Assembly (NCBI GenBank): GCA_934086775.1
Contig: CAKOIJ010000001.1
Location: 4,141-68,140, forward strand
Origin: an uncultured Bacilli bacterium
GTDB taxonomy: Bacteria > Bacillota_I > Bacilli_A > RF39 > UBA660
Length of the DNA: 64,000 nt
Direction: 5' to 3'
Both the position numbers and the translations under genes were made by a program. The notes below the pieces were generated by a model. The model saw only the letters and a program-made list of their open reading frames with translations, searched no databases and was not told the DNA's origin. Below, piece after piece: positions 27,875 through 51,073 of the stretch (the first letter of the stretch is position 1; each line of letters starts with the position of its first letter).

Positions 27875-29380
27875 CTAATTATAAACTATCTCGTAAGGGC
27901 TTTCTGAACTTCCATTTCCTGAAGAATATGGAACTTCTGCCTTAATTGATATAACAGGGCGGACACCATAAGCAGTGGTCACATTGCCGTCGTCTAATCT
28001 ACCCGGATTGCGCGAACCGTAAACACCAAATGAGCCAGCATTAGCACCATTCCAGTAGGTAGGAGACAAAAGCCACCACCATGTACTTCCTGTTATACTT
28101 GAACCAGTACTATTTAAATAATACCATACTGATGGATTGTTAGTCCATGCTAAACCTCCTGCATAACTAACTTCATCTGCTGTCATGAGTCCTATTGGAT
28201 GTGTTAGTTTTGCTTTTGCATTACTTCCTGAAAATGCATCTTCTGGTGTAGTACAATCGTATGTTGGTGTTTTTTTACTTGCTAGTCTACCATATGCCAT
28301 GTAGTTAAATCTTTCACTTCCTGCTGCACTATATGTTCCATTTGCTACATTTCTATCATTACAGTATATCGCTTCTGTACTTAAGTATTTTGTATAACTT
28401 GTTAAGTTATTACTATACCATTTATCTATTACTCCTTTTACTACACTGCTATTTGTATTTTTACGATTATTTTCTAAAGACCCACTTATTCCATACATAT
28501 AACCTACATACATTGAATCATTAGATGTACTATTGAATTTACTTGTACCTATATATCCACTTGTTGTATCAGGACTTGTTCCTGAATACAAAAGTCTAAT
28601 ACTTCCATCATGATTTGTTCTTATTATTCTCCAGTAAAATCCTGCAAATTTTACCCAGTTATTAGTAGGATTCCCTGCAAAGTAATATACATCTTTTGTT
28701 GGTCCTCCTGTTATACTTTCAGTACTCTTAAATAATGTACCAGTTGTATCACTTGTAAATATTGAACTAAATGATGTTCTTGTTCCTCTTGTTTGATTAT
28801 CATTTAGTATTTGCCATCCCAAAGTACCTTCTTCATATTCTCCATGTATATTCTCTGTTCCTTTTTCTATATACAATGAACCACTTAATACTTTACCCAT
28901 ATCTTCACTTTGATCTACTACTAAAGTATCTATATATTTAAATTCTATACTATATGAGTGAGTTTTACCTTTTGCTATTTCTACACTATGGGCTAAAACT
29001 GTATCAGTAGTTGAACTTCTTTTAGGTACATCTTTAAACTCACTCATATTGTATCCACCATCAGTACTAGTTATTTTGTATACTAAATATCCTTTTGTAA
29101 TAAAAGTATTTACTAAATCTTTTATTACTATATTGTATTTATATGTACCATCACTTTCATTCTTTACTGTGAATGTACTTATACCACTTGACCAACCTGG
29201 TACTATTTCTGAACCTGCTATTGTACCTGTACCACTGTTAAATACTATCCTAAGATTAGCACTGTCAACTGAAACTTCTTTTTCTTTTCCAAGTATTTCC
29301 ATTGAAAACCATGCTAAACTAACTGATAATACTATTACTAACAAACTCCCTAATATAATTAATAATTCTTTCTTTTTCAT
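27875..29380 (-). CDS. Secreted TasA/camelysin (M73)-like protein with SipW-cognate-type signal motif (…SLAWFS…), paralogue 1, 501 aa
   Basis: N-terminus MKKKELLIILGSLLVIVLSVSLAWFS. N-terminal domain pattern (VFNSGTGTIAGSEIVPGWS…FTVKNESDGT) resembles TasA/CalY. Paralogous to 33794..35320 including the C-terminus …VRPVISIK…SPYEIVYN. Confidence 0.55.
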   Translation of the reverse strand: MKKKELLIILGSLLVIVLSVSLAWFSMEILGKEKEVSVDSANLRIVFNSGTGTIAGSEIVPGWSSGISTFTVKNESDGTYKYNIVIKDLVNTFITKGYLVYKITSTDGGYNMSEFKDVPKRSSTTDTVLAHSVEIAKGKTHSYSIEFKYIDTLVVDQSEDMGKVLSGSLYIEKGTENIHGEYEEGTLGWQILNDNQTRGTRTSFSSIFTSDTTGTLFKSTESITGGPTKDVYYFAGNPTNNWVKFAGFYWRIIRTNHDGSIRLLYSGTSPDTTSGYIGTSKFNSTSNDSMYVGYMYGISGSLENNRKNTNSSVVKGVIDKWYSNNLTSYTKYLSTEAIYCNDRNVANGTYSAAGSERFNYMAYGRLASKKTPTYDCTTPEDAFSGSNAKAKLTHPIGLMTADEVSYAGGLAWTNNPSVWYYLNSTGSSITGSTWWWLLSPTYWNGANAGSFGVYGSRNPGRLDDGNVTTAYGVRPVISIKAEVPYSSGNGSSESPYEIVYN

Positions 29381-29413
29381 ATAGACTTCCTTTCTTTTTT
29401 AGACACTAAAAAA

Positions 29414-29436
29414 AGATAGATTTAAAAAATCTATCT
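29414..29436 (-). terminator. Leader terminator/attenuator hairpin AGAUAGAUUU-UUUAA-AAAUCUAUCU followed by U7, immediately upstream of the RBS of paralogue 1
   Basis: Perfect 10-bp inverted repeat plus U-run on the minus-strand RNA. Covaries with the copy-2 hairpin. Confidence 0.55.
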
Positions 29437-29467
29437 CATTAAAGCACATGAAAAACCAGAAGGTTTA

Positions 29468-29533
29468 CTAGTTATTAATAATAACCCCCCCCCCTAGTAC
29501 TTTATTTTGTACATATAGGCTGTTGTTTTTCAT
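29468..29533 (-). CDS. Leader peptide uORF (21 aa, MKNNSLYVQNKVLGGGVIINN) containing the poly-G tract
   Basis: SD AAAGGAGA 5 nt upstream of the ATG. Conserved in copy 2 (MKNSNLFVQNKVLGGG…). Confidence 0.45.
   Translation of the reverse strand: MKNNSLYVQNKVLGGGVIINN
29485..29494 (-). repeat. Homopolymeric tract C10 (G10 on the coding strand) inside the leader uORF
   Basis: Seen directly. The only long G/C homopolymers noticed in this roughly 25% GC window are at the equivalent position of both paralogues. Confidence 0.9.
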
Positions 29534-29571
29534 GTTTTTCTCCTTTGTTATTTGTAGCTTCCTACAATAAA

Positions 29572-29628
29572 ATAATACCACAAAAAGTATTAGTTTACAA
29601 GTATTATTTTCTTGTACTTTTTGTGGTA
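29572..29628 (-). promoter_or_regulatory. Sigma-A-like promoter (TTGTAA-17-TATTAT, 29572..29600) embedded in a 14-bp-arm palindrome TACCACAAAAAGTA-N24-TACTTTTTGTGGTA (29576..29628), a candidate operator
   Basis: Seen on the minus strand. Identical arrangement upstream of paralogue 2. Confidence 0.45.
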
Positions 29629-29632
29629 CTAA

Positions 29633-33774: not shown

Positions 33775-33795
33775 AAGTGCAATTTCTTGCACTTT
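33775..33795 (-). terminator. Intrinsic terminator AAGTGCAA-TTTC-TTGCACTT for paralogue 2 (overlaps its stop codon)
   Basis: Hairpin followed by a U-rich run on the minus strand. Confidence 0.55.
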
Positions 33796-35320
33796 AATTA
33801 TAAACTATTTCGTATGGGTTTTCTGAACTTCCATCTCCCAAAGAATATAGGGCATCTATCTTAATACTGATAACTGGTCGAACAGCATTTTGAGTCCTAG
33901 AAGTATTATATACTAAAGCACCATTATATTCTTCTTTAGCTGGATAATAATTAATACGAGCAAGTGCCGCATAATAATGATGCTCAGAATCACTAAAAAA
34001 ATATCCGCCTGGGGAAATAGTCCACCATACTGTTTTTTTCGAAACAAACTCGCTTTTACTGTTCAAATTAAACCATAAGTATGAGTTCAATAAACTTGTT
34101 CCAGCTTTACCACCTGCATAAGCTATCTCATCAGCTGTCATTAGTCCTATTGGATATGTTAATTTTGCTTCACTATTACTTCCTGAAAATGCATCACTAC
34201 TATCTTCACAATTATATGTTGGATTTCCTGCTCTTAATCTTGTATATACATAGCAGTTAAAAGAACTACTGGCATTATAACTTGGTGCTTTTCTATCATT
34301 ACAATAGACTGCTTCTGTACTTATGTATTTTGTATAACTTGTTAAATTATTACTATACCAGTTATCTATATATGTTTTTATAGTACTATTATTTTCATTT
34401 GTTCTATTGCTTTCAAGACTTCCACTTGTTCCATACATGTATCCCACATACATTGGGTCATCATATGTACTATTGAATGCGCTTTTTCCTATATAACCCT
34501 GAGTTGTATCAGGACTTGTTCCTACATAAAGCATTCTAATACTTCCGTCTGCATTTGTTCTTATTATTCTCCAGTAGTATCCTCCAAATTTAACCCAGTT
34601 GTTAGTAGCATTTCCTGCAAAGTAATACACTATTTCAGGTGTACTTCCTGCTATACTTTCAGTACTTGTATAAAGCGTTCCTGTATTAGTAGAATTAAAT
34701 GTATTTGAAAAGTCACTTCTTACTCCTCTTACTGGATTATCTTCTAGTAATTTATACCCAAGTGTTCCTTCTTTATAATCTCCGTGTAATTTTATTTCAT
34801 TATTATCTATATATAGTGTTCCGGATAGCTCTTTTCCCATATCTATATTTTGATTTTCAGTTTCACTATTTAAATATCTAAACTCTACATTATATGTATG
34901 AGTTTTATTCTTTTCTATATTTATATTATATCCTAGTGTCATATCTGTACTTATACTGCTTTTAGGTACATCTTTGAAGTCACTCATATTGTATCCACCA
35001 TCAGTACTAGTTATTTTATATTGTAAGTATCCTGTTGTTACAAAAGTATTTATTAAATCTTTTATAACTATGTTATATTTATAAGTACCATTACTTTGAT
35101 TTTTAACTGTAAAAGTATTTACTCCGCTACTCCAACCTGGTTCTATTTCTGAACCTGCTATTGTACCACTTCCACTAGCAAAAACTATTTTTAACTCTGC
35201 ACTAGATGTAGATACATTAGAGTTTTTACTATTAATAGTTGTACTAAAATATGCTATTGATACTGATAGTACTACTACTAATAAACTTCCTAATATAATT
35301 AATAATTCTCTCTTTTTCAT
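33794..35320 (-). CDS. Secreted TasA/camelysin (M73)-like protein with SipW-cognate-type signal motif (…SIAYFST…), paralogue 2, 508 aa
   Basis: N-terminus MKKRELLIILGSLLVVVLSVSIAYFS. Collinear similarity to 27875..29380 over the full length. Confidence 0.55.
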   Translation of the reverse strand: MKKRELLIILGSLLVVVLSVSIAYFSTTINSKNSNVSTSSAELKIVFASGSGTIAGSEIEPGWSSGVNTFTVKNQSNGTYKYNIVIKDLINTFVTTGYLQYKITSTDGGYNMSDFKDVPKSSISTDMTLGYNINIEKNKTHTYNVEFRYLNSETENQNIDMGKELSGTLYIDNNEIKLHGDYKEGTLGYKLLEDNPVRGVRSDFSNTFNSTNTGTLYTSTESIAGSTPEIVYYFAGNATNNWVKFGGYYWRIIRTNADGSIRMLYVGTSPDTTQGYIGKSAFNSTYDDPMYVGYMYGTSGSLESNRTNENNSTIKTYIDNWYSNNLTSYTKYISTEAVYCNDRKAPSYNASSSFNCYVYTRLRAGNPTYNCEDSSDAFSGSNSEAKLTYPIGLMTADEIAYAGGKAGTSLLNSYLWFNLNSKSEFVSKKTVWWTISPGGYFFSDSEHHYYAALARINYYPAKEEYNGALVYNTSRTQNAVRPVISIKIDALYSLGDGSSENPYEIVYN

Positions 35321-35343
35321 AATGACTTCCTTTCTAACACGAA

Positions 35344-35372
35344 AAATAGATAGACTAAAAGTCTATCTATTT
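35344..35372 (-). terminator. Leader terminator/attenuator hairpin AAAUAGAUAGAC-UUUUA-GUCUAUCUAUUU followed by U5, upstream of the RBS of paralogue 2
   Basis: 12-bp inverted repeat. Stem-top sequence differs from copy 1 but pairing is preserved. Confidence 0.55.
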
Positions 35373-35461
35373 AATACACATGAAAAACTAGAGTTATTAG
35401 TTGTTAGTAATAACCCCCCCCCCAAGTACTTTATTTTGTACAAATAGGTTGCTGTTTTTCA
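35363..35461 (-). CDS. Leader peptide uORF (32 aa, MKNSNLFVQNKVLGGGLLLTTNNSSFSCVLNR). Its stop lies inside the terminator 5' arm
   Basis: SD AAGGAGA upstream. G9 tract puts the frame one position off relative to copy 1. Confidence 0.45.
35414..35422 (-). repeat. Homopolymeric tract C9 (G9 on the coding strand) inside the leader uORF
   Basis: Seen directly. Confidence 0.9.
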
Positions 35462-35540
35462 TGTTCTTTGTCTCCTTTGTTTTTTTGAAATATATGTACC
35501 ACATTATGTACACTACATTTCTTATATTTTCTTACAATAA

Positions 35541-35597
35541 AATAATACCACAAAAAGTATTAGTTTACAAGTATTATTTTCTTATACTTTTTGTGGT
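35541..35597 (-). promoter_or_regulatory. Sigma-A-like promoter (TTGTAA-17-TATTAT, 35541..35569) embedded in palindrome TACCACAAAAAGTA…TACTTTTTGTGGTA (35545..35597)
   Basis: Sequence identical to the copy-1 promoter/palindrome. Confidence 0.45.
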
Positions 35598-35868
35598 ACT
35601 AATGCGTAGCAATTTTTAAAATTGGTTTTAATAATAAAACTACTTATGATATAGTTCATAAGTTTTTCAAATGGGGGTCAATTAAAAATAAACACCAAAT
35701 CAACTTGATCTGGTGTTTATCAGCACAATACGGACTGAGTGAATACCTAACGAGCAAAAGCTAGGTAATACTCATTTTATTTGTCCTTTAATATTATATG
35801 AAGCATTTCTTCATGTATACATGATATCATTTGTATCAAATAATATCAAGTACTTTATATTGTGCTTA

Positions 35869-50720: not shown

Positions 50721-51073
50721 TGGTGGAGCTGACGAAGAGCGACTTCGTGTCCAAAGTATCAACCATACAGACGTGTACAAGTTTAGTTGGTTTATTATTT
50801 CAAAAAATATTATGGAGAGCCAACGTTCCTATATTTTTCTAAGTTTAGTAATAGTTCATTATATAACCTAAACAATTATATAGTATAGTTCACTTTTATA
50901 AGTCCAGACATTACCCTCGTGAACAAAGAATAAGCTGAACCACTTGTTTTTCCTTAATTAGGCAAAAGCAGGTGCGTAATTAAAATCGTTTCCGATTATT
51001 TTTTGTTGCGTTTATAGTACGCCTACTACTTGCATCCATACGTACAACTACTCTGTCGAATCAAAACAGCCCC
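50721..51073 (-). ncRNA. ssrA: Transfer-messenger RNA (tmRNA, SsrA)
   Basis: 5' GGGGCUGUUUUGAUUCGACAG… pairs with 3' …CAGCUCC-ACCA. T-arm ACGAA/GUCGCUC/UUCGU. Internal tag ORF ending …GAUUUUAAUUACGCACCUGCUUUUGCC UAA UUAA (…DFNYAPAFA*). Located in an ORF-free region of locally higher GC. Confidence 0.8.

Follow-up and report, generated by a model that had tools for sequence, protein, structure and literature searches.

The closest described relative of the switch considered here is found in Streptococcus gallolyticus, where the pil1 and pil3 pilus operons are controlled by phase variation of a leader peptide combined with transcription attenuation. This was demonstrated genetically, the proof resting on mutation of the ATG, the stop codons and the terminator (Danne et al. 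2014, PMC3894217). In pil1 the variable element is the repeat GCAGA, present in 13-22 units (PMC3894217). Short leader peptides that stop at least 28 nt (28-39 nt) before the hairpin go along with low expression, and leader peptides that end in or after the hairpin go along with high expression; both the leader ATG and the terminator are needed for this effect (PMC3894217). A second type of transcribed repeat is known from Haemophilus influenzae hmw1A, in which expression of a surface adhesin is controlled by a heptamer SSR of the structured 5' leader, with an RNase III element involved (PMC12721329). The literature search returned no second described case of SSR-controlled leader-peptide attenuation beyond S. 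gallolyticus. In Moraxella catarrhalis uspA1 and Treponema pallidum tpr, a G tract 5' of a surface-protein gene alters the transcript level, and the tracts are located in or near the promoter or in an untranslated leader. We know of no leader peptide plus terminator mechanism described for either uspA1 or tpr.

The DNA analysed here, referred to below as the window, is a 64-kb stretch of 25% GC from an uncultured Bacilli bacterium, and contains two paralogous genes on the minus strand, copy 1 and copy 2. Each paralogue appears to be preceded by a phase-variable leader-peptide transcription attenuator, a reading to which we assign a probability of about 0.75. The whole leader of copy 2 lies on the minus strand and consists, in order, of a promoter, a uORF with Shine-Dalgarno (SD) motif and ATG, a G tract, a hairpin and a U run, after which the 508-aa gene begins. 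The features of both copies are as follows.

35542-35570, minus strand: leader promoter of copy 2, with the -35 element TTGTAA at 35570-35565, a 17-nt spacer, the extended -10 TGgTATTAT and the -10 hexamer at 35547-35542 (consensus scan)
35472-35475, minus strand: Shine-Dalgarno motif of the uORF, GGAG, 9 nt 5' of the ATG (read directly)
35462-35460, minus strand: start codon ATG of the uORF
35397-35462, minus strand: uORF as encoded with G10, 21 codons, MKNSNLFVQNKVLGGGVITNN followed by the stop TAA-TAA
35414-35423, minus strand: homopolymeric G10 tract forming Gly codons of the uORF (C10 on the plus strand), predicted slipped-strand switch
35454-35464, minus strand: 5' strand of helix P1, ACAUGAAAAAC, including the uORF start codon; its partner in the MFE fold is 35388-35378
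35378-35388, minus strand: 3' strand of helix P1, GUUUUUCAUGU, located 3' of the early stops and predicted to be translated in the long frame only
35426-35441, minus strand: hairpin P2, GUAC-AAAAUAAA-GUAC, directly 5' of the G tract
35344-35372, minus strand: intrinsic-terminator-like hairpin AAAUAGAUAGAC-UUUUA-GUCUAUCUAUUU, then UUUUCG (RNAfold, -13.6 kcal/mol)
35365-35363, minus strand: TAG within the 5' arm of the hairpin, which would end the uORF at G9 or G12
33794-35320, minus strand: putatively controlled gene of copy 2, 508 aa, with an N-terminal signal or anchor helix, of an uncharacterised family
29381-29600, minus strand: cassette of copy 1, with the promoter at 29600-29572, the uORF at 29533-29468, G10 at 29494-29485 and the hairpin at 29436-29414
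27875-29380, minus strand: gene of copy 1, 501 aa, its protein 60% identical to that of copy 2

In copy 2, an untranslated stretch of ~70 nt separates the promoter from the GGAG motif, and the interval from hairpin to gene is AGAAAGGAAG, followed by the ATG of the 508-aa ORF. The SSR is located within a short ORF that has its own ribosome-binding site and whose frame, if translated as predicted, stays open through G10; a predicted intrinsic terminator (hairpin and U run) lies between this leader ORF and the structural gene. A first-pass annotation of the same DNA had recognized this combination of uORF, G tract and terminator, and its elements are indeed present on the minus strand, but it had counted nine G residues where the tract (35414-35423) has ten. 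The difference changes the predicted state of the copy. At G10 the uORF stops 24 nt 5' of the hairpin, at G11 it would stop earlier still, and at G9 it would run to the TAG in the 5' arm. Because the span from the ATG at 35462 to the last base of the in-stem TAG at 35363 measures 100 nt, this TAG is out of frame with the uORF ATG at G10. The TAG is thus where the annotation had seen it (35365-35363) without being the stop of the uORF at this length, and the supposed 32-aa peptide ending at the UAG of the hairpin is replaced by one of 21 codons with an early stop. The leader had also been delimited as 35363-35461 (99 nt), which is one base short as a result of the tract miscount.

The uORF of copy 1, MKNNSLYVQNKVLGGGVIINN followed by a stop, likewise contains G10 and ends at the same distance (24 nt) before its hairpin, and the promoters of the two copies are identical. 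As assembled, both window copies at G10 are in the early-stop configuration, the predicted OFF state. The opposite states that had been ascribed to the two paralogues arose because the G run was miscounted.

The promoter region is also the site of a perfect 15-16-nt inverted repeat (GTACCACAAAAAGTA...TACTTTTTGTGGTAT; 35545-35599, minus strand, arms 35599-35584 and 35560-35545), which encloses the -35 element, overlaps the extended -10 and is followed by a U-rich run. The same palindrome is present in copy 1 (29575-29629, minus strand), where the upstream ORF ends immediately before it. In the related loci L023 and L081 the arms differ in sequence and yet stay complementary, and the repeat therefore looks like a terminator hairpin of the upstream gene that has become joined with the promoter; an operator is another possibility. 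The untranslated leader of copy 2 further carries a 41-nt insertion relative to copy 1 (AGAAATGTAGTGTACATAATGTGGTACATATATTTCAAAAA, about 35487-35527 of the window, minus strand), which is found as well in L032, L088, L093 (12119) and L097.

The two tracts are the only G or C runs of at least 7 in the window, and G10 was observed twice against 0.00 expected in 100 dinucleotide-preserving shuffles of the window, which is far beyond chance. The genes nearby (nusA, infB, dxs, rnhB, PPIase, yceD and rpmF) are housekeeping genes, and hence the two putatively switch-controlled genes are scattered among core genes and form no island. A tmRNA gene (50721-51073, minus strand; 119 bits) is the sole Rfam match within the window. 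The leader had no match in Rfam 15 at gathering thresholds, and a permissive Rfam search of 35300-35620 gave chance-level matches only (E of at least 0.4, well below gathering).

In the proposed mechanism, transcription would begin at the conserved sigma-70-type promoter, and a ribosome would load on the short uORF, which crosses the hypermutable G tract. If slipped-strand mispairing at replication added or removed one G, the frame of the uORF would be reset. In two of the frames the ribosome would meet stops 7-18 nt past the tract and be released, and with this early release the AU-rich hairpin and U run would form and transcription would terminate ahead of the gene (OFF). The remaining frame, reached by both window copies at G9 or G12, would keep the uORF open for ~16 more codons, up to the in-stem TAG, and a ribosome trailing the polymerase would cover the 5' arm, leaving the terminator unfolded and allowing the polymerase to read into the gene (ON). 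P1 would close the uORF start after the leader is made, and only the first polymerase-coupled ribosome would decide. Translation of the uORF, termination at the hairpin, the long frame as ON state and the role of P1 are parts of the model that we infer. It is speculation, in particular, that P1 restricts uORF translation to the first, co-transcriptional ribosome, and a simple attenuation model leaves the purpose of P1 unaccounted for. The model needs close coupling of ribosome and polymerase, which, to our knowledge, is not universal in Firmicutes.

The anatomy of the leader, its frame logic, the covariation of its helices and the polymorphism of its tract at related loci can all be read from homologous sequences. 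A scan of genome collections with both window proteins gave 78 loci, all from MAGs of uncultured gut 'Tenericutes'/Bacilli/Firmicutes (UMGS1658, UBA11492, Hadza MAGs, Nepal MAGs and rabbit MAGs), and a leader-pattern scan of metagenomes gave 18 further loci. The comparison set consists of 42 non-redundant complete homologous leaders, which share ancestry and do not count as independent cases. Their tracts are G7 (1 leader), G8 (16), G9 (8) or G10 (17), and G11 is carried by one truncated leader copy. Across about 0.44-0.5 Mb of related loci (25-30% GC), all G runs of at least 7 lie on the gene strand, usually ~100 nt 5' of a family gene, and on inspection they fall in homologous leaders or fragments of these. 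An nhmmer profile of the leader finds matches essentially only alongside a tract of G7 or longer. The leaders form two sequence families with a common architecture and different peptides: MKNNS..VQNKVLGGG in family 1, to which the window copies belong, and MKELILFE.STKLGTNFGGG in family 2.

The frame logic is shared by nearly the whole set. An SD-like motif, an ATG that is invariant in the alignment and a frame open into the tract are present in 42 of 42 leaders. Stop positions were computed for each leader with its tract at n-1, n and n+1. Exactly one frame stops inside the terminator hairpin in 40 of the 42 (5' arm in 35, loop in 4, 3' arm in 1), and the remaining two frames stop at most 18 nt past the tract. 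The exceptions are L009, in which two frames end at the hairpin, and L029, in which a mutation has turned the TAG into TGG and the uORF reads on in the long frame to the gene start. From tract to hairpin, stop codons number 0 in the long frame against 93 and 86 in the other two, and from ATG to tract they number 0 in the relevant frame against 49 and 40. The complete design arises in ~5.6% of trials per sequence with composition-matched shuffles. In the terminator stem, the A-U-A-G core is invariant and the pairs on either side covary, an arrangement that is expected if the TAG must stay a stop codon. The design idea of the first-pass annotation, namely that the tract sets the frame, with one frame entering the 5' arm of the terminator and the others stopping early, is thus borne out across the 42 related leaders, and has an experimentally proven precedent (PMC3894217).

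Of the 42 leaders as assembled, 33 have the early-stop and 9 the long configuration, and the downstream genes are intact in both. Within a genome most copies are early-stop and few are long: 1 of 8 in UMGS1658 and its source sample, and 2 of 10 tract-bearing leaders, plus two locked ones, in the MAG CAKOLN. Only two leaders are without a slippery tract, L068:2813-2999, in which it is interrupted (GGGTGGGG), and L021:2840-2999, which has no G run. Both have a uORF that is permanently in the long frame, with its end at or directly next to the terminator hairpin. They are apparently 'locked-on' versions, and their fixation in the long frame fits the reading in which long means expressed. Several copies can be long at once in related genomes, which fits independent switches rather than the mutually exclusive expression that had been envisaged for the two paralogues.

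The helices P1, P2 and the terminator are supported in both families by RNAalifold and by explicit pair counts, with ~97% of cells paired in the three helices. None of 500 shuffles reaches the observed covariation score, which is also far above slid controls. P1 always takes in the uORF AUG, but its partner is family-specific: ACAUGAAAAAC pairs with GUUUUUCAUGU in family 1, and AAACUAUGAGAG with CUCUCAUAGUUU in family 2. Compensatory changes in P1 include AUGG/CCAU, AUGGG/CCCAU and a matching AU insertion on both strands of L015. In family 2, GUACCA-AACU-UGGUAC occupies the place of P2. The leader hairpins are AU-rich, with energies of -9 to -14 kcal/mol. In the predicted folds P1, P2 and the terminator are compatible helices, and the terminator arms have no alternative pairing; an antiterminator pairing of these arms with the P1 strands was considered, and inspection of family 1 gave nothing convincing.

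The leader peptide itself had been expected to be conserved through synonymous changes. However, 4 of the 7 differences between the two window uORFs are non-synonymous, and across the family-1 uORFs the variable sites are spread 9/9/8 over codon positions 1/2/3, with no bias to synonymous sites. The peptide sequence is therefore under no visible selection, and the conserved stretches of the leader 'peptide' are the RNA helices. Peptide conservation was accordingly set aside as evidence, its place being taken by the frame-specific absence of stop codons. The family-2 G tract has a predicted partner in the upstream UUCUCUUU within the uORF, with which it forms helix 2, mostly through G·U pairs (93% paired; columns 22-31 with 59-71 of alignment A4, e.g. 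L008:2837-2975). The family-1 tract has a weak partner on its other side, a CUCU/CCUUCU stretch located downstream.

A leader as highly structured as this one, with covariation, could in principle act as a switch of RNA structure without any translation. Tract length would then alter folding, processing or mRNA stability, as in the hmw1A 5'-UTR with RNase III, and the extensive predicted pairing of the family 2 tract with UUCUCUUU would be in keeping with such a role, as would the precedent for SSRs that act through 5'-UTR structure (PMC12721329). We regard this explanation as unlikely, since it leaves unexplained the invariant SD and ATG, the lack of stops in one frame both before and after the tract, the conservation of an in-frame TAG within the stem and the fixation of the tract-less copies in the long frame; moreover, a helix rich in G·U pairs should be little affected when a single base is gained or lost. 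The leaders do resemble hmw1A in having a complementary strand, rich in G or in pyrimidines, to which the repeat pairs. By contrast, control in hmw1A is graded and proceeds via RNA processing, without uORF or terminator logic, and the three-frame periodicity together with the in-stem stop codon points to translation here.

Polymorphism of tract length, which the first-pass annotation had suggested looking for in related genomes, was indeed seen at related loci. At a locus downstream of rpoC, the tract is G10 in L082 and G9 in 8 independent assemblies or samples, whose flanks are 99.8-100% identical to L082 over 400 nt on either side. L001 (G10) and L087 (G9) come from different samples and share at least 97% identity across 600 nt of upstream and 217 nt of downstream sequence; L086 (G9) and L092 (G10) have 600 nt upstream and the leader in common; and in family 2, L101 (G9) is 96% identical to L024 and L044 (G8). 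Of the hypothetical leader peptides that OFF loci would encode with one G less, 3 of 10 were found exactly among called genes. For the two window loci, exact protein look-up in public assemblies revealed no second, different allele among the matches listed: the copy 2 protein was found on one identical contig among these matches and the copy 1 protein nowhere. The hypothetical G9 leader peptides of both window copies were absent from the protein collection.

Slippage is known to occur at long homopolymers, and the frame logic described above would serve equally well if polymerase or ribosome slipped at G10 and a fixed fraction entered the long frame, with DNA length only tuning the level of expression. 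Length polymorphism at the DNA level was, however, seen directly at identical loci, and tract-less leaders exist, in the long frame. A slippage rheostat of this kind is rather improbable, and would modify the attenuation model more than compete with it.

Promoters are the target of many known homopolymer switches in intergenic DNA, as has been proposed for the poly-G tracts upstream of Treponema pallidum tpr genes or the poly-A of Mycoplasma vlp promoters, and the tract could accordingly be imagined to change promoter spacing, or otherwise to act at the DNA level, with an incidental uORF. The leader promoter is kept in many family-1 loci, but this conserved promoter is located ~120 nt 5' of the tract, and the tract therefore lies inside the transcript. 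Three cassettes (L084, L093 and L098) are without a promoter of their own and are located directly 3' of an upstream gene, and the design of uORF and hairpin is conserved, which makes control through the promoter very improbable. The remaining possibility, that the tract is a neutral hitch-hiker in a repeated leader and its length differences are sequencing or assembly noise, gains something from the poor handling of G runs in Illumina data and from the contigs that often break at the tract (L013, L006, L030 and L090), but is scarcely credible given the absence of G runs of at least 7 elsewhere in the related loci and their constant placement on the gene strand, the agreement of 8 independent assemblies on G9 at one locus and a frame design that is too regular. 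It is chiefly the three-frame pattern of stop codons that disfavours all these explanations and leaves attenuation by a phase-variable leader peptide as the preferred reading.

In this arrangement the leaders share several properties with pil1 and pil3. The SSR is located inside a leader ORF, 5' of a premature intrinsic terminator (here a predicted one); the early stops fall well short of the hairpin (28-39 nt there, 24 nt here); the repeat number places the stop either far from the hairpin or in or at it; and the genes controlled encode surface proteins (here probable secreted or surface proteins), most cells or copies being in the low state, which here is a state read from sequence. The switch nevertheless differs from the known one in other respects, and there is no evident sequence relationship between them. 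The repeat is a G homopolymer that changes in steps of ±1 nt, whereas that of pil1 consists of 13-22 GCAGA units. Here one frame in three is long and predicted to be ON, ending at a conserved TAG in the 5' arm of the stem; in pil1 both out-of-frame states are long. The leaders described here have an additional covarying helix that sequesters the uORF AUG, as well as a second hairpin. Finally, they form a portable, modular cassette that is present in up to about 10-12 copies per genome and also precedes a small HTH gene, and that is known from sequence alone.

The proposed mechanism also recalls attenuation of the E. coli trp and his operons, in which, as proposed here, folding of the terminator is decided by how far the leading ribosome has moved along a short ORF. 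Unlike trp and his, the leaders contain no runs of regulatory codons, the only repeated codons being the Gly codons of the tract, and no 2:3 antiterminator. The input would be a heritable change of DNA length rather than tRNA charging, and the ribosome would mask the terminator arm directly.

The 501- and 508-aa proteins encoded downstream have an N-terminal hydrophobic helix (signal or anchor) and a predicted beta-sandwich domain. A conserved C-terminal module of ~320 aa is common to all leader-controlled relatives, which have variable N-terminal modules and range from 490 to 910 aa, and the unnamed homologues of the controlled proteins number more than 7,800. In Pfam only DUF6273 was found, below threshold, and NCBIfam and PDB sequence searches with the controlled protein gave no match. 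The AlphaFold (AF2) model has a pLDDT of 60.7, and Foldseek returned weak generic beta-sandwich/CBM matches with a TM to query below 0.2. On this evidence the controlled proteins can be described only as probable secreted or surface proteins. They had been taken for fibre subunits; a Gram-positive pilin or fibre subunit was considered and rejected, as there is no pilin or TasA-type domain, no LPXTG sorting signal and no informative fold match. The proteins end in ...SPYEIVYN, with neither LPXTG nor a C-terminal hydrophobic tail.

Uncultured gut Bacilli/'Tenericutes' carry up to about 10-12 copies of the cassette per genome. Contigs often break or are masked at or near the G tract and the repeated leader (L013:1-8, L006:2637-2644 and the ends of L030 and L090), and the copy numbers per genome are therefore underestimated. 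The cassette is not confined to the family of secreted proteins: at L046:1053-1500, L047:1058-1500 and L056:1146-1600 it stands before an 80-aa helix-turn-helix (XRE-like) gene, which hints at regulators that may themselves be phase-variable. Other loci are rearranged. At L095:1270-1469 (minus strand), a complete leader is joined to the last ~10 codons (…SPYEIVYN and stop) of a family gene, a fusion that suggests a remnant of deletion or recombination. L086 and L092 have their leader in common and diverge 3' of the terminator, the L086 contig stopping 55 codons into the gene, and this divergence suggests cassette shuffling. Close members of the gene family at L099:960-1215 and L100:940-1215, which are 68% identical to copy 2, are located downstream of pfkB/smr and have an ordinary promoter and no leader cassette; switch control is therefore optional within the gene family.

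On balance, the leaders seem to represent an undescribed modular cassette, in which a promoter, a start-codon-sequestering helix, a poly-G uORF and a terminator with an in-stem stop would together provide independent on/off switches across the genome (at least 8-12 copies) for a very large unnamed secreted family and for some small HTH regulators. Such a cassette would be a commensal counterpart of Neisseria opa and Mycoplasma vlp, and it would constitute only the second known case of SSR leader-peptide attenuation and the first with a homopolymer and with a helix through which no ribosome after the first, co-transcriptional one could take part in the decision.

Experimental proof of SSR leader-peptide attenuation exists for a single species, and the same logic would be present here as a conserved, portable cassette, whose many uncultured host genomes come from the human gut on several continents and from rabbit. 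Tract length modulo 3 would provide a sequence-only readout of the predicted on/off state of each gene in metagenomes. The switch is compact and engineerable, and the start-codon helix and the in-stem stop give testable predictions on the coupling of ribosome and polymerase. The presence of the cassette ahead of dozens of paralogous, putatively secreted proteins would imply extensive stochastic surface variation in an abundant lineage of uncultivated commensals.
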